Source of the DNA: Mobula hypostoma
Lineage: Eukaryota
Assembly: GCF_963921235.1 (NCBI RefSeq)
Contig: NC_086097.1
Location: 40,240,001-40,304,000, forward strand
Direction of reading: 5' to 3'
DNA: 64,000 nt
The stretch's first letter is position 1; each line of letters starts with the position of its first letter. Of the stretch, positions 1-18,218 are shown piece after piece. Below the pieces are notes generated by a model, which saw only the letters and a program-made list of their open reading frames with translations, made no database searches and had not been told where the DNA came from. A program made the position numbers and the translations under genes.

Positions 1-159
1 AGCCTAGAATTAATTGATGTCTAAAAGTTGGCATCATGGGGCATACATATTGGGCTCTAAAAGATCTCAATTGCTGCGTATCTGTTTGGGAGGAAATGGG
101 GCATTACTAACATTTCTTGAGGGCAGTCTGCTCTGAAATGGAAGTGTGTGGAATGCAAG

Positions 160-462
160 CAGGTCTTTATGCTCACTAAATCCACGCTGACCACCAGGCA
201 CCCACTTTACACCAATCCTATACTAATCTCATGATTGTTTTCCCTGCATTCCCATTCAATTCTACCATTCAAACTACAGTTAGGGGCCACATAAAGGGGC
301 TGTTTAAACTACTAATGAGCATATGGGAGGAAACTGGACCACCTGGAAGAAATCCACCTGATCATATGGAGAGCATGCAAACTCCACACAGACAGCACCT
401 GAGATTAAGGTTAAACCAGGGTCCCTGGAACTGGGAGGCAGCAGCTCCACCACTGTGGCACT
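160..462 (-). mobile_element. tRNA-derived V-SINE (HE1-like), degraded
   Basis: Reverse complement of the V-domain (gggaggaaactggaccacctggaagaaatccac) and of a tRNA-like head at about 400-460. Confidence 0.7.
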
Positions 463-539
463 CCAGTGAGGCAGAGCCAGAGGGAGGAAGCAGGATGCAA
501 GGCTAGAAGGAAAGGATTACAGCCAGCTTCTGGAGCTAC

Positions 540-832
540 TGGGCGGCAGAGTAGCATAGTTCTGTTTTACAGTGCCAGCCATCAGTGATCAGGGTTCAAT
601 TCCCCCCACTGTCTGTAAGGAGTTATAGCATTTTCTCTGTGACTGTGTGGGTTTCCTTTGGGTGCTCTGGTTTCCTGCCACGTCCCAAGAATGCACTGGA
701 TAGGGTTGGTAAGTTGTGGTTGAGGTTGGAATCCTGCTGACACTTGCACATATTTGGACTGTTAGCTATTGACAGAAAATGATGCATTTCACTGTGCGTT
801 TTGAAGTACATGTGACAAATAAAGCTAATCTA
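540..832 (+). mobile_element. V-SINE
   Basis: tRNA-like head with gggttcaattccc B-box; V-domain gtgtgggtttcctttgggtgctctggtttcctgccac; 3' end catgtgacaaataaagctaatct. Confidence 0.8.
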
Positions 833-1049
833 TTACAAATTGGCTCTCCATTGGAAGGGGAGGATTTTCCTTTCATCCTATACAAGCCTTCCTGTTCAGT
901 GATCTGAAACCTGAGGAGTGCTCTGAACCTTGCGCAGGTATGTACCTTAACAGATAAGCTGCCATATTCCCGAGTCACATTTCAGGCAATTGGCTGACAA
1001 TCCAAACCAGTGCTTCAGTTTGTCTGTTGTCTGTGATTTATATTAAGCG

Positions 1050-1500
1050 TAGGTATAAACCTTATTCGTGGGACTAGCAACTGTGCCACAGTGGCAGAAT
1101 CTGTACTGTCATTCTGTTTAATCCCTAGATATCACACAATGCAAACTTACTGGCCAAGTATCAAAGCGTGTAGTACAGAAATTGGTAATTGTTTTTTTAA
1201 CGATGCTGAAAGGCTTAATGAAGTCAGAATTATTTGTTCTTGGATTCATAGCAGCATTACCATTGTTGTCGCGTGCCTTTACAATCAAGAACACAAAATG
1301 TCCAGGAGACATTTCCTTCTGCACCACTGGGTACTTTATACTCAAGAACAAAGCTTCATGCCCACTCTATTAACAGCAGTATCTACACCATAAAAATGTG
1401 AACAGTATCCCCAAACTTTATATATAAAATGCTCATGGCATCCTTAGCTTCCTGGTACTCCAAAATCTGAAGCTGGACTTCAAGAGAACATTAATACTGT
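1050..1500 (+). pseudogene. pol: Probable foamy-like pol remnant (RT thumb/connection region)
   Basis: Frame of ORF 1091: W...FNDAERLNE...LYNQEHK...WVLYTQEQSFMPTLLTAV resembles recalled PFV W...LNTASNLEER...YYNETGK...YVFSKAELKFSMLEKLLTTM. Same strand and upstream of the integrase. Confidence 0.4.
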
Positions 1501-1689
1501 CACACACAATCTCAGGTGAACCAACCGAGCAGGCTATGAGGGGAACAGTTGAAGTCATTTGAATGATGGGAAATGATTTGTAATAGGGGTCAAAATATTG
1601 ATAATATAACAACACAGAACCAAATAAAACTATTTGTTTAATGAAGGTACATCATCTGTTTTGTCTCTCACAAAGGTAAATTCCTGTTG

Positions 1690-2640
1690 AGGAGAGGAAT
1701 ATTAGAAAGACTCATTTTCTCTGAATCTTGCTTCTTTAGATGCAACTTTGCAGTTCAAAATGATAATGATAATATAGGCTCTCCCAAATTAGGTAACCTA
1801 GTGCTCTTTTTGATTCTGCAAATTGACATTTTATCTTTTTCTCTGTCCCTTACAGTTTATTTATTTTTGTCTGCCCAACATGCTCTTTGTATGTGTCCTA
1901 CATTATTGCATTTTCTGCACGTTTCAACTTTAAATCTGCATTGGTTCGGTGTATGTGAGCATCTGCCACAAGGGTAATCCAATTTGTTCCACCAGGCAAG
2001 CCTCCATCTAGACACTGCAATTTTGTTCATTCTCAATTTCACTCTTAATTTCATTATTGAGTGCAACTCACTTGCACCTTTGTCTGCTCTTTCCATTGAT
2101 ACAACGATTTCATCTGCTCTTTTAAATGTGAGTTGTACTTCAGTTAGGAGCCGTTTTTGAATGGTTTCTTGTAAGATTCCACAAACTAAATGACCTCTCA
2201 GTGCATCATTTAGCCCATTACCAAACTGGCAATGACCAGACATTCTCTTCAATTCACCCATATACTGTATGCTGAAATGGACTTCCCTTCCTTTTGATCC
2301 TGCTCATGAAGTCTAAAGTATTTTGCAATCAACAATGGTTTTGGTTTCAATTGTTCCTGCATTACTTTCATGATATCAGCAAAACTCATTTTGGCTGGTT
2401 TTTTTGGAGCAATCAAACTTCTAAGCAAACCATATGCCTTTAAACCCAATGCACTCAGCAGAACAGGTACTTGTTTCTCATTGCCTATTTCAATTGCTTT
2501 AAAATACTGCTCAATTAGCTCAGTATGCATATTCAGTTTATCTCTTGTGCAACTGAATGTCTATCTTTCTGATGTAGCCTGTCATTTCTGCTCTTTTTAT
2601 TTATAATTATTATCACCCAGTGCTAACTGTTTATGAACCC
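1690..2640 (-). mobile_element. gag: Ty3/Gypsy LTR retrotransposon gag (frameshifted, 3'-truncated element)
   Basis: ATG at 2585 (MTGYIRKID); ORFs 2249-2530 and 1857-2261 with LRGHLVCG and CCHC knuckle CRKCNNVGHIQRAC. Confidence 0.9.
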
Positions 2641-2684
2641 ATGAATTCTTCCATTTAAAATAAAATTGCAGCACACTGCTGTGC

Positions 2685-3390
2685 AGCGGGACTTGGGAGT
2701 GCTTGTGCATAAATCACACGAGGTTGGTTTGCAGGCGCAGCAGGCAAATGGAATGTTGGCCTTCATTTGCTAGAGGGATTGAATTTAAGAGCAGGGAGGT
2801 AATGCTCTAACTGTGCAGGGTACAGGTGAGGCCGCATCTGGAGTACTGTCTGTAGTTCTGGTCTCCTTACTTGAAGAAGGATATACTGGCTTTGGAATTG
2901 GTGCAGAGGGGGTTCACCAGGTTGATTCCAGAGATGAGGGGGTTAGACTATGAGGAGAGATTAAGTTGCCTGAGACTGTACTCACTGGAATTCAGAAGAA
3001 TGAGAGGAAATCCTATAGAGACATAAAATTATGAAAGGGATAGATAAGATAGAGGCAGGAAAGTTGTTCCCACTGGTAGGTGAGACTAGAACTAGGGGAC
3101 ATAGCCTCAAGATTCGGGGGAGTAGATTTAGGAAGAGATGAGGAGGAACTGCTTTTCCCAGAGAGTGGTGAATCTGTGGAATTCCCTACCCAAAGAAGCA
3201 GTAGAGGCTACCTCAGTAAATATATTTAAGACAAGGTTGGATAGATTTTCGCATGGTCGGGGAATTAAGGGTTATAGGGAAAAGGCAGGTAGGTGGAGGT
3301 AAGTCCATGGCCAGATCAGCCATGATCTTATTGAATGGCAGAGCATGTTTGTTGGGCATAGTTACATACTCCAGCTCCTATTTCTTATGT
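2685..3390 (+). mobile_element. CR1 LINE 3' fragment inserted in the Gypsy leader
   Basis: RT C-terminus motifs (VRPHLEYC-like, RVVNLWNSLP) and CR1 3' end ctcctatttcttatgt. Confidence 0.9.
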
Positions 3391-3565
3391 ACTGCCTTTT
3401 CTTTTAACTTGACAGTCTCTCACTGTACCTGAAGAAGAATCTGCTATGCTGATTTTTTTTTTTACTTGACTGTTTCTCGCTGCACATTTTTTAACTCAAA
3501 TGTCTTGATGTGCTTCAACATGTGGGTAGTCATCTTGGGTTTGTTTAAAACTTCCTCATTGCCAA

Positions 3566-3805
3566 TGTTATGTTTGGTAACTCCAAAGCACTAAAACTAA
3601 TTGAAAGCGAAACAAAGGAGGTGGAGGATACTCATGCATGTTAATTTTTACTTTAACTGAGGCATGCACTCGTGCTGTGATGGCGTAATGACGTATCCCA
3701 TTTATGTACTTTTACATATAATGTGCAATGCATTATGCAAACGACAAAGAATGCTTAATCAAACAATACATTTCCAAATATTACTGAAATCTTAAATACA
3801 CAACA
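3566..3805 (-). mobile_element. 5' LTR of the Gypsy element, with adjacent PBS at 3553-3564
   Basis: Termini TGTT...AACA. On the minus strand the LTR is followed after 1 nt by TGGCAATGAGGA, a degenerate TGGCGACGAGGA-type Gypsy PBS. Confidence 0.75.
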
Positions 3806-3859
3806 GGCCACCTTTAGGATTCCATGAAATCAATATCATGAAGTGATGTATCATGCACA

Positions 3860-4690
3860 GTGTTAAAGTCTTGTTATGCTTGTCAATGTCAAGGAATACT
3901 ACCAAACACGTCTTTACCTATCCCCCCCGACATTCTGCTTTTCTGCTTTCTGCATGGATTGCTCTCTCCATGATTCCCTTGTCCATTCATCTCTTCCCAC
4001 CAATCTCCCTCCCGGCACTTACCCTTATAAACAGAATAAGTGCTATACCTGCCCATTCACCTCCCTCATCTCCATTCATGGCCTCAAATAGTCCTTCCAG
4101 GTGAGTCAACACTTCACCTGCAATTCTGTTGGGGTCATCTGTGGTATATGGTGCTCCCAAAGTGGCCTCCTCTACATTGGTGAGACCCAAAGTAAATTGG
4201 GGGGGGGGCACTTTTTCAAGCACCTTCATTTCATTCACAACAAGTAGGATTTCCCAAAGACCAACCATTTTAATTCCAATCCCCACATTTGTTCCAACAT
4301 ATCAGTTCATGGCCTCCTCTACTGCCATTATGAGATGACTTCCAGGATGGAGGAGCAACACCTCATATTTTATCTTGATAGTTTCCAACCTGATGGCATG
4401 GACATCAATTTCTCTAAATTTTGATATTTTCTTTTCCTTTCACATTCCCTTTTCTTCCATTCCCCATTCTGGCTCATCTCTTACTTCTCTTCTCCGCAGC
4501 TGTCTAGCATCTCTCCCTGGTGCCCCTCCTCCCTTCCTTTTACCCATGGTCCACTCTCTTCTCCTATCAGATTATATCTTCTTCACCTCCAATTAATTTT
4601 TCCTCCTATCATCTCTCTGCTTCTTACTTCATCCCCCCTTCGTCATCCACCTGACTTCACCTTCTAGCTTGTACTCCTATCCCCACTCTC
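3860..4690 (+). mobile_element. Penelope-like element 3' part (GIY-YIG endonuclease and pyrimidine-rich tail)
   Basis: CYTCPFTS...SFQVSQHFTC...CSQSGLLYIGETQ; MDINFSKF C-terminus; C/T-rich 3' region. Confidence 0.85.
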
Positions 4691-4928
4691 CATTGTGAGC
4701 TTTAAGAGTGTTTTAAGAATATTGTTTGAATTTAAACATGAATTAAATCACTGAAAATAAATGAACCGTGTTTTAAACTCCTTTGTTAGCCATAAGCATC
4801 TTCTCCTTAATGGGCGGGGGGGGGGGGGAACCAAGTGCTCGAATAGTGGATAATGGTAGTTACAATATTGGAATCTCAAAGTTGTATACTGTATACACAC
4901 TTCGATAATAAATGAACCTTTGAACCTT

Positions 4929-5505
4929 TATGAAGCTGATGGTCAAGGTAAAGTTTCGGTATGCCACCCTAAAAAAGATTTTAAAAAAATCAAATTCCTC
5001 CTGTCTACAAACAGGAATCCCTGATTTGAGAAGCCCTCCAGAGGATTTGGATACAATCATGGTGGTGGACAAGCCCCTTATGTGAAATTAGCGATGTTAT
5101 TCTGGTGGCCTTACATGTTGAGTGACTATAAGCAATTTGTTGCATATTGTAAGGAATATCTGGCCTATAATAAAGGAGAGTCCCAAGACCATCTACTATA
5201 AGATAAATAAAAGCAACTGCACCATTGCAGGTGTGGTAAGGTGACTATATTGACCTACTTCCTGTATCCCAAGGCAACCCACCATTTTGGAAACCTAATA
5301 AGTATACTTGTGATAATTGACCTTTGTACAGATATACGTGGTTAGTCTCCATGACAACTTGTAGTCAGACTGCAACCCCGTCACAGCACTCCAAAACTCC
5401 ATGTTCCCATATGCTGACACCCACACCTGCACGTATGCTGACTGAGTGTCTTCCGTTAGTGGTAAAGTCTTTCAAGCCATGTAGCCATGTGTGAACAACA
5501 GGCAC
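4929..5505 (+). pseudogene. pol: Foamy-virus-like integrase, N-terminal domain and first half of the catalytic core
   Basis: With frameshifts: YEADGQGKVSVCHP / QIPPVYKQESLI*EA / NHGGGQAPYVKLAMLFWWPYMLSDYKQFVAYCKEYLAYN / [17 protein letters not shown] / ILVIIDLCT / RYTWLVSMTTCSQTAT / VTALQ. Confidence 0.85.
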
Positions 5506-5507
5506 AG

Positions 5508-6045
5508 ATCAAAGTTCAAAAATTCAAAGTACATTTATTATCAAAGTAGGTATACGGTTTACAACCTTGAGATTCATCTCCTTACAGGCAGCCACAAAAC
5601 AAAGAGAACCCAAATAGAACCCATTGAAACAAAAGAAAACTTGAATACTTAATGTGCAGAGAGAGAAAAAAACAATTCATACAAAGAATAAAAGTAGGCA
5701 AATAGCACTTAGAACTGAAGTTCACAAAAGTGAATTAGTTGCAGGCCACGGCCTCAGTTCAGTAGAGAGACGAGTAAACCTCTTGGGGCAGCAAGCTGAA
5801 GTTCAGTGCAGAAATGAATAAATCTCCAAGCAGTGAGTTGAACACTGGCCTGACACTTGCCTCTGGCGCGGAAATCCTGACCTTTTCAAATTGGCCCAGC
5901 GCTTCAGTGGTCCAAACCTCAGGTTATTCATTGCTCTTGGACCTGGGCTCTGCTTTGCCTTGGGTCTGCCACATTGAATTGCCTCCAAGTATGCTCCAGC
6001 AATGGCCACACCTGGACTCATCCCCTCGAATTGGCCAAACGCGCT
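5508..6045 (-). mobile_element. Non-autonomous non-LTR element with Rex1-type 3' end, inserted in the integrase
   Basis: Begins caaagttcaaaaattcaaagtacatttattatcaaag; the same terminus occurs at about 14503, 54088 and, inverted, at 4865-4928 and about 45890-45920. Confidence 0.65.
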
Positions 6046-6049
6046 TTGC

Positions 6050-6498
6050 TGCATACAAGTGGAGTATAATACTTCATTCCAGCTTCTATCAAGTGGCAAA
6101 GTTGAGTGAAGGAATCGAGAGATTATGTAGGGCTTGGCAAAAGTGATCTACTATAGAGGCAAAATAGGCTACACTTGTCCATAAACAAAGTAGATTACAC
6201 CTCATTTCTTAACATACAATGTCCCCCTAAATACACCCCTGATTGCTAACTCAGGCCAACCATCGCCTACACCAGGGGACTGCAAAAGGAAAAAAAGTTG
6301 CATAAAAATAATTTTGACCCTAGTTTCCAAACTAAGTGGAAACTGCCTTGTCTTGTTACCCAGATTATCAACAATATGACTATGGCAATCAAGACTGGGT
6401 GGAGAAACAAGACTGTAAGTAAAGCTGTCTCCAAAGATAATATCAAACCTGTCCCAGTACGATTTACTCCCCCAGAACGAGTGGTGCTTTTATGTTAG
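6050..6498 (+). pseudogene. pol: Foamy-virus-like integrase, end of core and C-terminal domain
   Basis: SSGKVE*RNREIM*GLAKVI from 6089; PSFQTKWKLPCLVTQIINNMTMAIKTGWRNKTVSKAVSKDNIKP in ORF 6298-6498. Confidence 0.88.
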
Positions 6499-6589
6499 AC
6501 CGGTATATGGGTCCACCACAGAACTCCTACACCCCGACAAGAGGTGGATGTATTGAAAAGATAAAACACATGTTTAGATCTGAAAAGAA

Positions 6590-7255
6590 ATGAAAAACTT
6601 GTTCACTGAGGAACATCTCATTGATACATTGCCCAGGGATAATACATCCAGACTGCATTGTTGTTTACAGAGTAAGGCAGACTCAAACTTCAGGAGGAAA
6701 TGATGCTTTTGCTGTATTTTACTTTTACTATGTATAGTACTGTTAATTTCTGCCTTATTTACTATTTGCTTTCTCACAGACGAAGTTGCATTTAATGTGG
6801 AAATTGTCTCATCTGGCTCAGTCACCCCTAAAGCTTAATGACTCAGAATATTATTAGAGAGGATCTGTGATCAATAATTCTGCTTTAGATATCAATAAAT
6901 AGCCCTGATCTCTTAGTCATATGTGAACTAATACACTGAAACCCTAACCCTTGTCTGTGGCAAATTGATAGCTCCTGTCCACTTAAGTATTTACTCTGAT
7001 GTCATTGCAGATGAAATGAACGTATGGACAGACAAAGAACCACTTGCAGAAATGATTATTAACACCTTAACAAAACTGAAATATTCTAGCCCAGATATTG
7101 AAGGTCAACTAATAGAGGAATCCTTGACTTGCATCCCTTTTGAAGGGATACACTTGAAAGAAAAGTATAGACACTGTTATGTAATTGAATGATCCCACTC
7201 ATGGGAACATGTCTTCGAAATAGTTAGACTGGACCGTTGTGAAAACCCCTATTTT
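6590..7255 (+). pseudogene. env: Foamy-like env: leader peptide with signal/anchor helix and SU N-terminal block
   Basis: RRK*CFCCILLLLCIVLLISALFTICFL...FNVEIVSSGSV (6692-6825); LSIYSDVIADEMNVWTDKEPLAEMIINTLTKL...EKYRHCYVIE*SHSW...LDRCENP (6965-7250). Confidence 0.8.
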
Positions 7256-7284
7256 TTTTAAAGCAGATTTCTCCAGTAAACACA

Positions 7285-7878
7285 TATTATTTCACGAACA
7301 AACTCTTCTCAGGCTTCCAGCTGAGTACAGATATTGATTTTAAATGATGTTTTGATGATGAGCTCTGCCATCTTCATCAGGGATGATGTCTGGGCATGTC
7401 TAGTCCAATGGCATTTAAACCCCATCGTCCATCCTTCCTGATTAGTTAATCCTCATTCAGTCAGGTTTCCTCTGTCCCACCTTGTTTACAATTGAGTGAA
7501 ATCTTTATCTTTATTAAAATTATTTTCCTCTAGTTTTATTTCAATGGCTTCCTTCACCAAGTGGTCCCAAAAGCCATTGAAATAAAACTAGAGGAAAAGA
7601 ATTTTAACAAAGACCAAGGTCTCACTCTAAATAAGAACTGAAATTTGATAGTAAACAAGGTGGGACAGCAGAAACCTGATTAGATGAGGACTAACCAATC
7701 AGGAGGAACAGGTGATGGGGGTATAAATATTACTGCACTAGAAATGCCCAGGCATCACTCCTGATGATGGTGGTAGAGTTTATCATTGAAACATAGGTTA
7801 GAATCGATATCTGTACCCGGCTGGAAGGCCGAGAAGAGTTTATTCATCATATACTCTGGGAAAGCACTAGATCCTTTT
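7285..7878. mobile_element. Penelope-type inverted-repeat (fold-back) element inserted in env
   Basis: About 7295-7550 is an imperfect reverse complement of about 7575-7848 (aactcttctcaggcttccagc versus gctggaaggccgagaagagtt). Confidence 0.75.
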
Positions 7879-7910
7879 TTCATGTCTTATTGCACTTTCC
7901 CTTTTTGGCC

Positions 7911-8235
7911 AAAAAGGTATCTGAACATACTTACTATGAAGAGTTCAGATGTTCCCTTGTTTCCAATTATGGCTACTATTCCAATCCATTGTTAAATGTC
8001 ACAGTAACATAACAATTTTATGCATTTCTAGGTTATGTTCTAAATAGTTCAGTGAAGCCTTTGATTTGGGTTTCGCATGGGGAAGATCAGATGCTAAGAT
8101 CCACTGAAGCAGAACGTAAGATGAAACTAAAATGCTGGTCAACTGAAACTGGTAAATCCAATGGGCTTTTTAGAGATTTTATTCTTAGCGTCTTTTGTAT
8201 CTACCCAGATTTCTTATTTGCCCATAATTAAACAG
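7911..8235 (+). pseudogene. env: Foamy-like env SU middle block
   Basis: About 108 codons in one frame with two stops (about 8010 and 8229): FRCSLVSNYGYY...KLKCWSTETGKSNGLFRDFILSVFCIYPDFLFAHN*T. Confidence 0.8.
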
Positions 8236-8264
8236 TCGTTTAATTATGGGTAAATAATTAAACA

Positions 8265-11200
8265 GACCATAAGATAGAGGAGAAGAATTAGGCCACATGG
8301 CCCGTTGAGTCTGCTCTGCCATTTCATCATGCTGATCCATTTTTCCTCTCAGCCCCAATCTCCTGTCTTATCCCCATATCCTTTCATGCCGTCTCTAATC
8401 AAGAATCTATCACCTCTGCCTTAAGTATACCCAATGACTTGACCTCCACCACTGCTTGTGGCAAAGGACTCACAGATTCACCACTCTCTGGCTAAAGAAA
8501 TTCCTCCTCATTTCTGTTCTAAGAGGATGCCCCTCTATTCTGAGGCTGTGTCCTCTAGTCTTTGACACCCCAGCATATCCTCTCCACATCCACTCTGTTG
8601 AGGCCTTTCAACATTCAATAGGTTTTAATGAGGTCACCCTTCATTTTTCTGAATTCTATTGAGCACAGGTCCAGAGCCTCATATGAAAAGGCTTTCAATC
8701 TTGGAATCATTTTTGTGAACTTCCTTTGAACCCACTCCAATGTCAGCACATTATTCTTAGATAAGTGGCCTACAACTGCTCAGAATACTCCAAGTGAAGC
8801 CTCCCCAATGCTTTATAAAGCCTCACCATTACATCCTTGCTTTTATATTCTAGTCCACTCAAAATGAGTGCTAACATTGCATTTGCCTTCCTCACCGCCT
8901 ACTCAACCTGCAAGTTTGCCTTTAGGGAATCCCGCATGAGGACACTCAAGGCCTTTGCACCTCAGACTTTTGAATTTTCTTTCCATTTAAAAAATAGTCT
9001 ACACTTTTATTTCTTCTACCAAAGTGCATAACTATACACTTTCTGACACTGTATTCCATCTGCCACTGGTTTGCCTATTCTCCTAATCTGTGTAAGTCCA
9101 TAAATTCTCTTTACTTCCTCAAAACTACCTGCTCCTCCACCAATCTTCATATCATTCACAAACCTAGCCACAAAGCCATCAATCCTGTCATGTAAGTCAT
9201 TGACATATTAATGTAAAAAGAAGCGGTGCCAACACAGACCCCTGTGGAACACCAGTGTTCACCAGCAGCCAATCAGAAAAGGCTCCCTGTATTTGTACCT
9301 TTTACCGACTGCCAATCAGTTAAAGCTTTATCAAAGCTAGAATCTCTCCTGTAATACCATAGGTTCTTAACTTGTTAAGCTGCCTCATGTGTGGCACCTT
9401 GTCATCGGCCTTCTGAAAATCCAAGCACAAATGATCTACTAATTCTTCTTTGTCTATCCTGCTTGTTATTTCTTCAAAGTATTCCAATAGATTTGTCAGG
9501 CAAGATTTTTCCTTGAGGAAACCATGCTGACCATGGCCTATTTTGTCATGTGGCTCCAAGTACCCTGAAACTACGTCCTTAACAATTGACTCCAACATTT
9601 TCCCAACTGCTGAGGTCAAACTAATTGGCCTATAAATTTACCTTTTTCTGTCTCTCTTTTCCTGAAGAGTGGAGCGACATTTGCAATTTTCCATCCTCTG
9701 GAACCATGCCAGAATCCAATAATTTGTGAAAGATCATTACTAACATCTCCTGAATCTCTTCAGCCACCTCTTTCAGAACTCTGGGGTATATCCCATCTGG
9801 AACAGCTGGCTTATCTACCTTCAGACATTTCGCTTTCCCAAGAATCTTCTCCCTAGTAATGGCAACTTCATGCATTTTTGTCCCTTGACACTCTCAAACT
9901 TCCATCATACATTTAGTGTCTTCCACTGATGCAAAATACTTATTCAGTTCATCCACCATTTCCTCGTCCTCCATTACTACCTCTCCAGCATAATTTTCTA
10001 GTGGTCCAATATCTACTCTCGCCTTTCTTTTACACTTTATGTATCTGAAGAAACTTCTGGTATCCCTTTAACATTATTGGATAGCTTATATTCATGTTCC
10101 ATCTTTTCCTTCTTAATGACTTTTTAGTTGCTTTCTGTTTCTTTTTAAAAGCTTTCCAATTCTCTAACTTCCCACTAATCTTTGCTCTATTATATACACT
10201 TTCTTTGGTTTTGTGTTGGCCTTGACTTCTTTTATTAGCCATGGTTTTGTCATCTTTCCTTCAGAATACTTCTTCCTCTTTGGGATGTATATATCTTGTG
10301 CCTTCCGAGTTACCGGGAGAAATTTCAGCCATTGCTGCTTTGCTGTCATCCCTGCCAGTGTTCTTTTCCAATCAATTCAGGCCTTTACTCCACTGTAATA
10401 CTGATACATCTGACTAGCTTCCTTTCTCAAATTTCAGTGTGAATTTGATCTTATTATGGTCACTTCACTAAGGGTTCCTTTACTTTAAGCTCTCTAATCA
10501 ATTCTGGTTCATTGCACAACACCCAATTCAGAATAGGGAACCGCTCGTGGGCTGAATCATAAACAGCTCTAAAAAGCCATCTCATAGGCATTCTAGAAAC
10601 TCCCCCCTCTTGGGATCCACTACAAACTTGATTTTCCCAATTTTACTGCATATTAATATCCCCCATGACGATCATAACTTTTGATATGCATTTTGCATCT
10701 CTTGTGATAATTTGTAGGCCATATCTTTACTACTGCTTGGGGGTCTGCATACAACATTGTATCATTTCTTAATGCATGCATGCATTTCTAAATGACAATA
10801 AATGAGGACTGAGAGTTCTCATAATCTAACTCCCATCAGGGGCTTTTACCCTTGAAGTTCCTTAGCTCTACCCACAATGATTCAACACCTTCCAAGCTTT
10901 TGTGACCTCTTTCTAATAATTTGATTTAATCTTTTACCAACGGTACTACGGCACCACCTCTGCCTACCCATCTGTCCTTTCGATATAATATGTATCCTTT
11001 GACATTAAGCTCCTGGCTATGATTCAGTGGTGCCTATATGTCCTACGTGACAATCTGTAACTGTGCTACAAGTTCATCTACTCTATTCCATGTACTGCAT
11101 ACATCCAAATATAACCCCTTTGTTCCTATATCACCTTTCTCGATTTCGTATGCCCTTTACATTTTTGCCCTATTGTCAGACTCTCCTTGCTAGCAGTCTC

Positions 11201-12740
11201 ACTACACATTGCCTCTATTTTTAAACTAACTACCTCATCCTCAGCATTATCACTCCAGTGCCCATCTTCTGCCAAATTAGGTTAAATCTCTGGAACAGAG
11301 CTAGCAAACCTGCCCACAAGGATATTGGAGCAACACACATTAAATGCTAGAGGAACTCAGCAGGCCAGAGAGCATTTATTGAAAAATGTACAGTCAACGT
11401 TTTGGGCCGAAACCCTTTGGCAGGACCAAAACACCAACTGTACTTTTTTCCATGGATGCTGCCTGGCCTGCTGATTTCCTCCAGTATTTTGTGTGTGTTA
11501 CTCAGATATCTAGCATCTGCAGATTTTCTCTTGTTTGCAAGGATATTGGTCCCGTTTGGATTCAGGTGTAATCCATCTCTTTAGTACAGGTCGTACCTCT
11601 CCCAGAAGAGATCTCAATGATAAATAAATATGAACCCCTGCTCTCTGCACAAGTTCCTCAGCCACGCTTTCATCTACCAAATCATCTTTTTCTTACCCTC
11701 ACTGGTACATGGCATCAATCCAGAGATTACCACTTTGGAGGTCCTGTTTTTCAGCTGTCTACCTAGCTCCTTAAAATCTCTGTTCTCCTCACCTTTCCTA
11801 CCTATGCCATTGGTGCCAATATGTACCAAGACTTCTGGCTACTCCCTTGAGAATTCTGCAGACCTGATCTGAGACCCTGGTACCTAGGAGGCAACATAAT
11901 GTACTGTCCGGGTGTCTCTGTTATGCCCACAGAAACTCATCTCTGTCCCTCTAACTATGGAACCTCTTTTCAGCACTGCAGTCCTCTTCATCCCTCTTCT
12001 CTTCTGAGTCACTGCACCAGACTAGGTCACTGTGGCTCCCACCTTGTAAGTTGTCCCCCTCAACAATATCCAAAGTAGTATAACCTATTATTGAGAGAAA
12101 TGGCCGCAGGGATACTCTGCACTGGTTGTGCATTTCTTTTCCTTCTCCTGACAGCCGCCCAGTTACCTGCCTCCTACAAATTAGAGGTGACTATATCTCT
12201 GTAGCTCCTATCACCTCCTCATTCTCCTGTCTGAGCGGAAGGACGTCAAGCTGCAGCTCCAGTTCTTTAATACATTCTCTGAGGAAATGCAGCTCAGTGT
12301 AACTGGTGCAAGTGTGGTTATCCGGAAGACTTGAAGTCTCCCAGAACTCTGACATCTCACACGCAGGACAAAACACTGCTCCTGGAGCCACTCTCACTGC
12401 AGTACTGTGCCCTAACAGATGAGAAATGAAGAATTCAGAAGAAAAATAGAAACTTATGAGATACTTACCTTGCCCAAGGTTGATCTCACCCTAGCCTGAT
12501 TAGCCAAAGCCACTCTAAACACTGGCCCATTCACCACAATGGCCGTTCAAGACTTGCGCTTAAAATATTTTTGTTCACCTTTTCAAATGGATCCTGCTCA
12601 ATGGATCTTGATCAATGGATCCTTCTTCAACCTGCATTTTTTGGAGTCCAACTCCAAAAAACTGACGTGAATTTCTGTCTTTTTAATCTTGACTGTCCAC
12701 CTGATTTAAGAGACAGTGTCTGACGTAATGATGTCAGTGT
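8265..12740 (-). mobile_element. Near full-length degraded CR1 LINE (ORF1 and ORF2) inserted in env
   Basis: 3' tail at 8265; RT motifs QHGFLKEKSCLTNLLEYFEE and DFQKADDKVPH; ORF1 CPACEM...IKELELQLDVL zinc-finger/leucine-zipper region at 12191-12397. Confidence 0.92.
11329..11537. mobile_element. Short Penelope-derived palindromic element with 12-bp TSD
   Basis: caaggatattgg at 11317-11328 and 11538-11549; internal aaatgctagaggaactcagcaggcca versus tggcctgctgatttcctccagtattt. Confidence 0.85.
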
Positions 12741-12749
12741 AAGGTGCCT

Positions 12750-13592
12750 ATTGTTGGTTTGATTGTAATTGAAGTAAAGGGCTGCAGCTTTTGTTAAGCA
12801 CATAAAATGACTCTCACCTGTTTTCTTGACAAAATCCTACTATTTTCAGACAAGTCTTCAATTATTGCTGTGTATTCAGTTGCATGATGTTGTTGTCAAC
12901 AGGCAGAGGTAAAAAAAACAATTTTGCTCTAAACAGTTTTCATGATTTTTAACAAAATATTAGAGTGAAATTGCCTGCATTGACAGTGCACATTCTCACA
13001 ATAACACTGACCTGATCCTTTGGTTCACTCGGAAGGGAGAAATTTCTGATGAAAACATACTGCTATCAGAGGCTCACTCGCTTTTTAAGGTTTATAGAGG
13101 AAATGACTCTTTGGAGTAATTTGATCATTTAATCTATGTTGCATATCTCAAAACAGAAACACAAGTCCAGTTTTAAGGAATGATTTTTGATAGATGCAAC
13201 GAAGAATGTTCCATAAGGACTTGATATTCATTAACAATGACCAGAAGAAACTAAATTAAAATTGAACTTAATCAAATCGCAGTAATATTTCTCTGTATAT
13301 TATGAGAATAACTGAAATGACACAATAAAAAGTGAGAAACACCTCCTTTCACAAGTTTCCTTTCCAGACTCATTTTTCATACTAAACCTTTGACTAGCTT
13401 AACGCTCCAGTTGAAATGATAGCTAAGACTTTTCCAGCTGTTGCAAATTTAGCTTCTGCAGCAGCAAATTCAGTTCCTGGGTGTGTTGGCACTACTTTAA
13501 ATTGGACTTAGAGACGACTTTTTGCAGTTTTGCAGTGGAGAATTCCCTTAGCTATTGGAATTATTGTTTTCATATTCTTTTTGTTGAGATGA
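12750..13592 (+). pseudogene. env: Foamy-like env TM C-terminal part with membrane-spanning domain
   Basis: 13407-13592: PVEMIAKTFPAVANLASAAANSVPGCVGTTLNWT*RRLFAVLQWRIPLAIGIIVFIFFLLR*. The 12750-13400 part is assigned mainly by position. Confidence 0.7.
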
Positions 13593-14502
13593 AGTCTGCA
13601 AGGATGGAAGTGTGGTGACTTTTGTGTTTTGTACAGCAGTTCCACTCCTAAGGCTTCATTAACTTCCATACCTAACCTGCACTACTGTGGGTTTTATCTC
13701 ATATGGTATATACTTCCTCGTACTTGCCTTTTACCTATTCCTCTGGTTCATCCTTAATCCTAGAAGAGTGAAGAGCAGGGGCTGCCCTGATCCTGCTACC
13801 CTTGCAACTCTCCTTTACCTAGTTCTGATCACTAACGTGACACATGGGTATTAACTGGTCTAATAACACAATCCCACAGAAAGATGAGTATTCAAAGATT
13901 ATTTTTTTACTCATGTATTTGGATGTTGCATATTTACTTTGCAACATGGGTAACTTCATATATATGGTCCTTAACATTTTATACCTTGTAAATGCCTTGT
14001 TCATTGCTAATGATGATACTACTCTATCGTGGTTTACTACTTTGACTTTTAAAACCATCTGTCATATACTTTTTATACGTTGGGAAAAGAATTATCAGGA
14101 GGAGAAAGATCATTATCCCTGAGGAAGGCAATAGTCCTGATAGCCTTTTTACCTATTCTGTTGTGATTTCTTCAGAAATGATGAGGTAATCCTAGTACCT
14201 CTAAGGTCAATAAAGTGTTTTATTGTCACAAGGTAGAAATAATTAAATGTGCTTTACTTACTCTTTAGGTACAAGTATATTGTATGTGATACTCCAAGGA
14301 ACACTAAACCTACCAATACTCCTATTCATATTATATCTAATATTACATTTACATTAATAATTTGTAAATGTGGTTGATAAAATCCCATGGTTTGACAGAA
14401 CAGATTGAGTAGTCCTTGCTCAGTTAAGTTTTCTGGGAAAACATACAAGTTCTTATTTTGGTCCAATCCTTAACAAAGTAAAGGGGGAAGAAATGAACAA
14501 TT

Positions 14503-15120
14503 AAAGGTTCAAAGGTTAATTTATCATCAAAGTGTTCAACTCTGAAATTCTTCTTCTCCAGATAGCCACAAAACCAAGAAAGAAAAGAACAGCAGCACGA
14601 TCATCCACCGCCAAACCCTCCCTCCCTGCACGAAAGAAACAAATAAAAATGGAACAGGCCCATCAACCCCCAATCCCCCTCTCCTGCACACACAAAAAAA
14701 CTGAGAAATATTGGTTTAAAAAAAAGAATAGAGAAAACTGTAAGACTGAAAAAAGAAGTCTATAGTCCAAGTCCATTCCCTCTCTAGTAGCAGAGTGATC
14801 CTACCAGCGATCAAAAGGCAGTCTCCCCTCTCCAGAAGCAGAACGATCCCACCAGAGATCAAAAGGCAGGCAGCCAGCGCTCACCCTTTGCAATCACCTC
14901 AATTGTTTCAATCTCCCTCGTCACTTTAATAAGCGAACAGTGGAAGCTTTAATCAGCAAAATGGAGTCGAACATCGGCTCGCACCTCATATCACATGAGG
15001 TTTGTGCTCGCTGGCTCTGTCTCCTGGAATCCTCTCAGAGACTGTAGAGCGCTGAAACACCCAAAAGATCTCCAAACTGCAAATCGCAGGCTCCAACAGT
15101 CCAAAATCCCTTTCAATTAT
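14503..15120 (-). mobile_element. Non-autonomous non-LTR element with Rex1-type 3' end
   Basis: aaggttcaaaggttaatttatcatcaaagtg terminus shared with the 5508 copy. Confidence 0.6.
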
Positions 15121-15982
15121 ATGCAGAGTTCAGCATCACGAATATAGAGAGAAACTTGTATAGATGGTATGGTTGGTATGAGAATATTAAGGTACAACAG
15201 AGCAATGTGTGATCGCTCCAAGGGAGTGATATAACCACATCTTATGTTGTGATGTTCTTTTCTGGGAGCTTAGAATTAAAGGTATAGACAATTCTCTACA
15301 GGAGAACAGTACTCTTCCTGACTTTTGTGAATGTTTTTATGCATATCATTATATAGTGGAATTGTGTAGCTGATTGAGATAATTAAAATGTAAGATTACT
15401 AATCTTAAGGTAAAGAAGACAGCAGTACACAGTCAGTAATTTGTTTACAAGACTTGTTTTCAGGAAACTTGAGCAAAGTTATGCATCATATCAAAAGCAA
15501 ACCCATGTGAAAGAGATGAACTATCCTCATTTTATTGACAGACATGCCAGCAGACCTGATAAGCTAATGGTGGCAGAGACAGTAATTAGTACTTACAACA
15601 AGAAAATGCCAAGAACTGTATGTGGGAAAGAAGATTTTAAAGATTGACTGATATGGGCTAATAATATGGGCATTGATACATTGTTATTGCGTGTTTATAG
15701 AAGATTATTTTAGTAACGTTCCTTTGAGGTTTGGGAAATTTGTGCAGCAGAGATTGAGGAAATGAGAACTCTAAAGAAAAAATCATACAGGAACCCATAC
15801 TTTGGGCAATGCTTGATGCGTGGTTTGAGCATCAGAATGAAGGGAACCTTTTCTAGCACTGGTAACCTACTGGAATGGATGAAGAAGTGACAGTCAGTTC
15901 CCAAGAGGTGTGTTGACAGGTCTTGATATCGAAGTGATATCGGTAGCAAGAAGGTGGATTAGAAATCTTCACTTAGCAAGGT

Positions 15983-15995
15983 GGGGGGAGGGGGA
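15983..15995 (+). other. Candidate 3' polypurine tract of the provirus
   Basis: ggggggaggggga followed by tatgg (possibly decayed TGTGG), about 2.4 kb downstream of env. Confidence 0.3.
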
Positions 15996-18218
15996 TATGG
16001 TAAATATTCACTCCTTGGATACTTTGCTAACCTTGCTTTCGAAACACAGCATCTTTTAAAGTGGAACAGTTGAAAGTAAACTTCCAACTAACAATTTATT
16101 TAACTTCTAATTGTAAATGAAAGCCAGCCTACAGTTCTTAAAATGTGAATGAAAAGTATTCTTGAAAGAACAGCTTTGCAAATAGGCTCAGTATTTTGAA
16201 GACACTCTGTCTCTAAGAAGTCACTGTAGCTGCTTAATTATTGCTCGAGTAGAGTATGGGATAATGAGTTCGTTGATTTGGGTTATTTTAGGGCAGACAG
16301 GCTAACTCTTAAGTTGCTTAGCTCAAGGAAGCTCATAGAACATGTATAATATAATTTAGCATATCAATTACTGATGTGTTTATAGTTTGAAAGGTTTATG
16401 TACTCAAAGAAGTTAGCTTTACAGCATTAATACCAAGATCTATGTCCCCAAATGATGCTTTTAAACCATGTGTTGAAAGGATATCTGAGGAAATATCACA
16501 TGCTTATGAAGTCTCTCAAGTGGCTGAAAAGGGGTAGAAACATAGAGAGCACTTCAGGCTTGTTAGGAATTGAGCAAGCAACATCAAGAAACATGAAAGA
16601 ACTAGAATCCATTCATCCAGCTTTGGTTTCTGTCACAGGCACTTGTTAGTATGCATCTTTTGTATATCTTTTTAGATTACAGGAATTGTACTTGTTTTGG
16701 GAATCCTTTGTCCTTTTCGTGTTATCCTTTCTGTTTAAGGAATGCTTAATGCTTTAGATTTTGGAAATGGTTTGTGTTATAGAAATGATTTGTATTTTGG
16801 AAATGTTTTATAATGTTTCAAGTTTCAAGATAATAATTTGATAATTCAAGATAAGATAGAAATCCTCTGAGTTTTAAAAGTGTTTCAAGAATGCTGTTTG
16901 GATTTTATCATGTACCGCTGAAATTAAACGAATTGTGTTTTAAATTACTTTGTTACCTGGAAGCTTTTTCTCCTTCCTGGGGAAAGGGGACCCACTGCTT
17001 GAATACAGCTAAACTCAGCGTGGAGAATCAATAGGGAAGTAAATTAGTCTTTGAAGATTGGGTAGTTACTGTATAATCTCCCTTTAGTAAGAGTACTTGT
17101 GGCTATTTACTGTATATCCGATAGGGCTTAAAATCTTCATTTGGGTTTAAAACTTCACGGTCAGCAAGCCCAATACCATCATAATCAAATGACTTTTGGC
17201 GTGGATACCTAAGTACCTATTACAGAAAGTGGCTTCGGATATTATTGGATTTCATGATAATGAGGTTTGACAATTTATTTGCATCAGAATCCTATTTAGC
17301 AAATAAGTTAAATTCACTTATATTAAATTCCTTGAGCCAGCACTGAAAACACGATCCTGTGGTTAATTGAGATTTTCATATTGATGGTGGCTTTTGATCT
17401 TTTTATTCAGTACCTAATATATAAGTTGCACAGTGCACTTATAAACATGAATAACAGTACAATCTTTAATTACGAATGAGACCACTTGGGAAATTAGATT
17501 TTCATGTTGATGTGTCAGTTTTTTTAGTGATTAAGTGGTTAATTGCTTTACAGCTGAAAAGACATCTGTGTTTTTGGGAGCTGGTGCTGAAGTTAATCAA
17601 AGCAAGACTGGAGGCCACACATATTCTTACTACAGGAATGATTCTACTGTTAGAACAGATCAGTGGTGGTTTTTGAAGAGACCTTCTTTTCTACATCTCT
17701 TAAGATAAATGTAATTAATATGCTTAGTGGTCTTGGGTGCTGTCTTGAAAATTTAATTAAATATTGAACAATTAAAAATTAATATTTCTCCTGCACCTGC
17801 TTTTTGTTTTTCTTTATCCCTTTTGATCTCTATGTAGTCACATTAGTGATTTAGTAAACATTTACCTTCTTGATCGATTAGGTACAAGTTATATAAAGAT
17901 GAGGAATATACTCAAAGACTCTGCAGTTGTGATTTTTTTTGTTTCTGTTGAATCCTTCTGTAATATATTTTGAAAACTATCTGGAACAGTGTTTGAATAT
18001 GTGTGCCAGGGCCAAACTAATTTCTGTACCATTCAAACATTAGCACAGGTTTTGCAATCTTCCTGAGACTATGGGCTTGATGATAAAATTACAACTATTG
18101 CCCATAACCTCAGAATAAGAAGGTGGCCATCTCCTTCAATATTTGGATTCCCATGATGACTTCAGATAAGGAATTGCCACCCTATTGAAGATGAAAGGTC
18201 AACAGATATGAGTCCAAG

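Follow-up and report, generated by a model that had tools for sequence, protein, structure and literature searches.

The stretch at positions 4929-6498 of the window, by which the whole 64,000-nucleotide piece of DNA analysed here is meant, is best explained as the integrase end of the pol gene of a 5'-truncated and heavily decayed provirus. This provirus would belong to an old, multi-copy family of endogenous retroviruses (ERVs) whose Pol is nearest to that of the foamy viruses (Spumaretrovirinae) among the references sampled, a reading to which we give a probability of about 0.85. The window comes from the genome of Mobula hypostoma, a 3.48-Gb assembly of 200 contigs, in which other copies of the family, here called sister copies, were found. 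The ancestral protein would have been a retroviral integrase composed of an N-terminal extension domain, an HHCC domain, a DD35E core and an SH3-like C-terminal domain; judging by its protein family, it probably trimmed the ends of the viral DNA and joined them to host DNA. Invasion of the germline and amplification would then have been followed by a long decay, of which the copy in the window may be regarded as a neutral fossil.

Similarity to foamy viruses can be read from the window's own sequence. A read-through of the integrase, 320 codons long and with its 11 breaks and 7 stops each written as X, was compared by phmmer with a panel of 116 Pol references, consisting of 14 foamy, 4 other ERV-like and 4 Copia sequences and 94 others that are almost all Gypsy-type by their Pfam domains. 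All 14 foamy-virus Pols were matched, at 54-72 bits, and the best of the 102 other Pols (Gypsy, other ERV-like, Copia) reached 33 bits, in a panel that had been assembled by similarity to foamy integrase and from which ERV-L, epsilon-type, lokiretrovirus and fish foamy-like sequences are missing. None of 200 shuffled versions of the read-through gave any reported match, the opposite strand of the window integrase matched none of the Pol references, and the match of the window to foamy Pol is well above chance. By tblastn against the window, with scores summed for each of the 116 references, foamy Pols made up 14 of the 15 highest-ranked. Their matches follow each other in Pol order, with the zinc domain at 5058-5171, the core at 6053-6256 and the C-terminal domain at 6313-6474, and identity is about 25-37% in the main alignments of at least 32 aa. 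Outside 4929-6498, no foamy Pol-like stretch was found in the 64-kb window.

Searches with single domains gave fainter signals of the same kind. In a six-frame Pfam scan of window positions 1-14000, Integrase_H2C2 was matched at 5058-5171 (E 0.0016, 19 bits, under the 25.5-bit cut-off) and rve was not matched in the window itself. Two sister ORFs matched rve (E 0.0053 and 0.014, below cut-off) and two matched SH3_11 (E 0.01 and 0.00089, both under the 25-bit cut-off); no Pfam family reached its curated cut-off in the window integrase or in any sister ORF. The integrase of the foamy virus PFV was the sole PDB integrase matched by single pieces of the window, as the top match of the zinc domain (E 0.0022) and at E 0.9 for the core. 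The C-terminal piece matched no integrase in the PDB and no Pfam family, and its similarity to foamy Pol residues 1079-1125 consists of a colinear tblastn alignment of weak E-value (references P0010 and P0014). The initial annotation had reported foamy-type motifs in all domains of the integrase, which holds for the zinc domain and the core, where PFV or other foamy sequences are the best matches; for the C-terminal domain the evidence is thinner, being made up of the sub-threshold SH3_11 matches and the weak alignment.

The six peptide strings on which that annotation was based were all found within 4929-6498 at the places given for them, but they are spread over three reading frames. The string QIPPVYKQESLI*EA (the asterisk standing for a stop) lies at about 4991-5035 in frame 2, HGGGQAPYVKLAMLFWWPYMLSD within 5025-5201 in frame 0, the third one, of 11 residues, starts at 5243 in frame 2, and RYTWLVSMTTCSQTAT lies at about 5330-5377, also in frame 2. 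The string SSGKVE*RNREI is in frame 2, with its E at 6104 and its TGA at 6107, and SFQTKWKLP...VSKDNIKP is found within 6250-6498 in frame 1. By coordinates, the integrase is made up of 12 in-frame pieces, in frames 0, 2, 0, 2, 0, 2 and 1 before a repeat insertion and 2, 0, 1, 2 and 1 after it. It contains at least 10 frame changes and at least seven in-frame stops, and four of these seven stops are TGA.

All domains are read on the forward strand. The N-terminal extension domain is represented by its C-terminal part, at 4929-4982 in frame 0, and a profile of the family aligns there from residue 25 of PFV integrase. It is followed by the zinc-binding HHCC N-terminal domain at 4985-5177, in frame 2 and then 0, with a TGA at 5027, and by the first part of the catalytic core at 5180-5481, in frames 2, 0, 2 and 1, with TAA stops at 5204 and 5237 and a TGA at 5443. 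An interspersed repeat of 568 bp (5483-6050), inserted in the core, separates the second Asp of the catalytic triad from its Glu. The remainder of the core (6053-6274; frames 2, 0, 1 and 2) has TGA stops at 6107 and 6144 and a TAG at 6165, as well as an extra TAG at 6128 that falls in a gap skipped by the read-through. The putative SH3-like C-terminal domain covers 6277-6498 in frame 1, aligning colinearly to foamy Pol as described above. The outer limits of the stretch had been placed correctly, with sister homology beginning at 4928/4929 and the last frame stopping at 6496-6498.

The catalytic triad, which had been said to be retained, is indeed present: once the window is aligned with foamy-virus integrases, their catalytic columns are occupied in it by D, D and E, with codons at 5243, 5440 and 6104 as derived from the places of the strings and the frame listing. 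The TGA at 6107 comes directly after the catalytic Glu and, as had been proposed, stands at a conserved Arg, the residue that foamy viruses have there. Since the sister copy L024 reads CGA at the same codon, this stop fits a C-to-T decay at a CpG. TGA also seems, by eye and uncounted, to be the commonest stop within the integrase matches of sister copies; an excess of this kind, like the share of TGA among the window stops, would fit CpG decay of CGA codons. At the zinc-ligand columns the window has a non-His residue, His, Cys and Tyr, the first His and the second Cys being lost. The four ligands are collectively present in sister ORFs, both His in L025 and both Cys in L033.

The repeat at 5483-6050 is recognised as an insertion because sister copies align over 4929-5482 and resume at 6051, their alignments skipping from 5482 to 6051. 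Genome-wide, it has 4,569 first-look candidates, and 39 scored matches elsewhere are 70-84% identical to it. The outline of the integrase given by the initial annotation was right in its strings, triad and boundaries, and had missed the 568-bp repeat, the part of the N-terminal extension domain and the two lost zinc ligands. The copy in the window is unable to encode an integrase, given that it has no sequence upstream of the integrase and bears the frame changes, the stops, the inserted repeat and the mutations at two zinc ligands. On another point, many sister copies in the family alignment share a wrong open frame past the middle of the integrase core; a frameshifted lineage could itself have been amplified.

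More of the ancestral pol gene is preserved in the sister copies. A family profile was made from 33 natural, unaltered ORF fragments of these copies and compared with integrases of solved structure. It matched PFV integrase at E 1.2e-19 (74 bits) over residues 25-235, a span that takes in the core and the two domains before it (N-terminal extension and HHCC), whereas the other solved integrases were matched at E 0.004 (HTLV-2), 0.007 or worse (HIV-1) and 0.16 (Ty3). In a large protein collection the profile had one match, a simian foamy virus Pro-Pol (E 1.3e-10), among the 5,587 proteins of 353-2,000 aa sharing short words, out of 5.8 billion. Taken singly, a sister ORF of 186 aa had no match among the longer proteins of the 5.8-billion collection that share short words with it, and one of 201 aa was searched against 1.84 billion representatives with no match at E 0.001. 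By tblastn, foamy Pols are colinear with sister copies through reverse transcriptase (RT; Pol residues about 340-605), RNase H (about 617-741) and integrase (about 785-1125), and at an E limit of 1e-3 no references but foamy ones matched the RT and RNase H that immediately precede the sister integrases. The RNase H just upstream of the sister integrase matched the retroviral/cellular RNase_H family of Pfam in three ORFs (best E 7.5e-5, below cut-off). Gag_spuma and Spuma_A9PTase had no match among the 54 sister ORFs scanned with Pfam.

The integrase fragment belongs to a provirus remnant that spans 4929-17187 and includes an env-like region and a 3' LTR. Sister homology sets in at 4928/4929 in nine of nine sister loci, with nothing upstream that is colinear with sister copies, and because it begins there and the 64 kb hold no other foamy Pol-like stretch, the remnant is considered truncated on its 5' side at 4929. 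Downstream, blastn against sister copies gave colinear homology blocks at 6051-7288, 7882-8239, 12847-14489 and 15115-16085. The first part of the env-like region (6590-8239, forward strand) starts with an ATG at 6590; a TGA interrupts this frame at 6701, a long, membrane-anchor-like hydrophobic stretch comes after it, and the decayed frames are common to sister copies. The interrupted frame and the hydrophobic stretch could be likened to a membrane-anchored Env leader. Sister colinearity ends at 8239 and resumes at 12847, and an unrelated repeat block is inserted between these points, at 8264-12846. The block includes a minus-strand LINE reverse transcriptase, matched by the Pfam family RVT_1 at E 5.9e-14 at about 9.2-9.6 kb (a position converted from residue numbers); as a whole, the LINE-type reverse transcriptase stretch nested in the env-like region runs over about 9200-10400 of the minus strand, and related LINE pieces lie at 2739-3390 of the window.

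The remainder of the env-like region and a post-env internal region, both decayed, occupy 12847-15977 on the forward strand, where blastn shows colinearity with copies A, C and D and where ORF clusters are common to sister copies. They are followed by a polypurine-tract-like run at 15978-15995, read from the sequence and putative in its role, which is placed directly 5' of the 3' LTR (15998-17187, forward strand, about 1.19 kb). The latter is identified as an LTR because it matches both flanks of other copies and has a TG start and a CA end; an LTR pair of the same length was found in one sister copy. Annotators should mask 4929-17187 as what is left of a retrovirus, with repeats nested in it, and should not take it for a gene. 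Two other features were seen further upstream. An unrelated repeat that abuts the remnant at 4928 contains about 13 consecutive G at 4812-4824, shortly before the truncation point. On the minus strand, two open frames, of 148 and 103 aa, lie side by side at 1857-2560. One of them has a CCHC zinc-knuckle-like motif and resembles the Gag of another retroelement; these frames are unrelated to the foamy-like integrase family.

Evidence for a foamy-type Env in the family is faint. Out of 214 env-region ORFs scanned with Pfam, one matched Foamy_virus_ENV, at E 0.0011, below cut-off and over profile positions 364-414. This ORF comes from a sister copy (L014:2283-2513), is homologous to window 8013-8228, and had as its sole PDB match a foamy gp130 chain, at E 0.78. 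A 147-aa env-region ORF matched only an unrelated isomerase in the PDB (E 0.88). When Gag and Env of 10 foamy genomes were compared by tblastn with the window and 12 copies, E-values were 0.035-0.78 and none was better, those of Env alone being 0.08 or worse. A genome-wide scan for Foamy_virus_ENV gave no match, but it used a stricter first look under which the controls were silent too, and is uninformative.

The relationship of the family to other integrases was further addressed by a tree calculated with IQ-TREE (LG+C20+F+G4) from 45 rows and 412 columns. Besides the window read-through and seven natural sister fragments, the rows were 10 integrases from the 14 foamy viruses, four other ERV-like sequences, four Copia sequences and, for Gypsy, 18 of the 74 database sequences together with one integrase from the same genome. 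The window and the seven sister fragments form one clade at 100/100 (ultrafast bootstrap / SH-aLRT), and this clade joins the 10 foamy viruses at 99/98, apart from the 19 Gypsy rows, in a tree without alpha, beta, delta, epsilon, lenti, ERV-L, lokiretrovirus or fish FLERV (foamy-like ERV) rows. The same union was found in quick trees with support of 95 and 92. Branches are long, with 1.4 changes per column for the family and 0.5 for the foamy viruses. What the sequences support by the term foamy-like is thus a position nearest to foamy viruses among the sampled references only.

Such a position could also be taken by an integrase of another spuma-related or basal retroviral lineage, be it ERV-L-like class III or an undescribed one, its foamy look arising from the lack of closer references. 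An origin of this kind would suit a panel without ERV-L, lokiretrovirus, epsilon-type and fish foamy-like references, the identity to foamy integrases of just about 25-37% (tblastn alignments of at least 32 aa), and the Env and Gag that have no significant similarity to foamy Env and Gag. We nevertheless consider it unlikely, because the family and the foamy viruses are grouped at 99/98 and because RT, RNase H and integrase all favour foamy references. The env region points the same way, its sole sub-threshold viral-envelope match being Foamy_virus_ENV (E 0.0011) and the sole PDB match of the ORF concerned being the foamy gp130 chain (E 0.78). Moreover, typical ERV-L elements are env-less, unlike this family with its env-like region.

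It is far less likely still that the integrase derives from a Ty3/Gypsy retrotransposon, although Ty3/Gypsy integrases have in common with it an H2C2 zinc finger and an rve core. Gypsy Pols match the zinc-finger stretch at 5058-5177, weakly, with 24-33 bits, and the top non-foamy phmmer match of the read-through (33 bits) is a Gypsy-type Pol. Gypsy scores are at least 21 bits lower than foamy ones, this being the amount by which the lowest foamy score exceeds the best Gypsy score; the family profile gives E 0.16 for Ty3 against 1.2e-19 for PFV, and the tree sets the family apart in a clade separate from the 19 Gypsy rows kept of 75. The RNase H upstream of the sister integrases is of retroviral type, matching Pfam RNase_H and not the RT_RNaseH families borne by Gypsy matches, and the Gypsy integrase of the same genome (L029/L030) is just 31-33% identical to the family core. 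The initial annotation had named best matches or a tree placement among Ty3/Gypsy integrases as what would speak against a foamy-type integrase; neither was seen, and a Ty3/Gypsy identity was rejected on best matches, the profile search of solved structures and the tree. As for L029 (G000:C76:13055000-13064999) and L030 (G000:C1:93529000-93538999), they hold a separate Gypsy-type element, with long frames of 347, 316 and 578 aa and a preservation far better than that of the foamy-like family. A host gene, a domesticated integrase or a chance resemblance, for which no support was found, is the least likely origin of all and was rejected, as at least seven stops, at least 10 frame changes and a repeat lie within the coding stretch, at least 148 sister copies are decayed, and 0 of 200 shuffles had any match.

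The integrase of a foamy-like ERV thus being the preferred reading, the size and age of its family can be considered. The first 572 bases of the stretch were found at 40 other loci with 73-79% DNA identity (40 scored of 235 candidates), and at the protein level a 92-aa core ORF of a sister copy gave 150 scored matches of 1,395 candidates. Two of these 150 belong to the separate Gypsy element, which gives at least 148 scored family copies and about 1,400 candidates. All inspected copies are decayed, the longest open integrase frames being of 201 and 186 aa. In two sister copies the LTRs of a pair were compared, with an identity of 75.5% over 1,186 nt in one and 80% over 352 nt in the other, a difference of 20-25%. 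This identity is similar to that between copies, and the history of the family is compatible with a single old burst of amplification and neutral decay after it. With a rate of 1e-9 substitutions per site per year, which is an assumption, the LTR divergence implies an insertion age on the order of 100 million years or more.

It is possible, though on balance doubtful, that the foamy-like lineage represented by the family is undescribed and both unusually prolific and very old, its copies still having an env-like region. If this is true, it would be among the oldest directly datable foamy-like invasions and an instance of a foamy-like virus with an env being amplified on a mass scale. The history of foamy viruses, which are regarded as some of the oldest retroviruses, is reconstructed from endogenous fossils. 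A lone dead integrase fragment adds little to that record. The family, with its many copies, its env-like region and its very divergent LTRs, could add a well-populated old lineage to it and could help to date early foamy-like invasions. The main interest is modest and resides in the apparent copy number and age of the family.

Some known systems are close to the one described here. The integrase of exogenous foamy viruses, as seen in PFV (PDB 3L2Q/3OYK), has the order of domains proposed for the ancestral protein of the family, with N-terminal extension, HHCC, DD35E core and SH3-like domain. PFV or another foamy integrase was the best match in every search that had matches, and the catalytic D, D and E align. 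On the other hand, the profile alignment shows a short segment, behind the first catalytic Asp of the family, that is lacking in PFV integrase, and in contrast to exogenous foamy viruses the copy in the window is endogenous, truncated and dead, with an adjacent env that is nearly without foamy Env similarity.

What the window holds is a dead fragment of a repeated ERV of a kind already described in lower vertebrates. Foamy-like ERVs are recorded from teleosts, amphibians, coelacanth, reptiles, birds and cartilaginous fish (PMC5512871, PMC10699275, PMC5210030; see also PMC4422223). These elements, known as FLERVs or ERV-Spuma, are likewise old and endogenous, have a foamy-like Pol and are found in lower vertebrates, with Gag and Env often too divergent to be recognised (PMC5512871, PMC10699275, PMC5210030). 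The available text of one of these papers places shark FLERVs basal to the foamy group of tetrapods and lobe-finned fish (PMC5512871), and that of a 2023 study states that neither Gag nor Env domains could be found in its shark elements (PMC10699275). Published FLERVs are set beside the family by description, and the family may be one of them. In copy number the two differ: at least 9 and at least 23 copies are termed high for fish foamy-like ERVs in the part of the former paper at hand (PMC5512871), whereas in Mobula hypostoma 148 or more copies of the family were scored, from among about 1,400 candidates.
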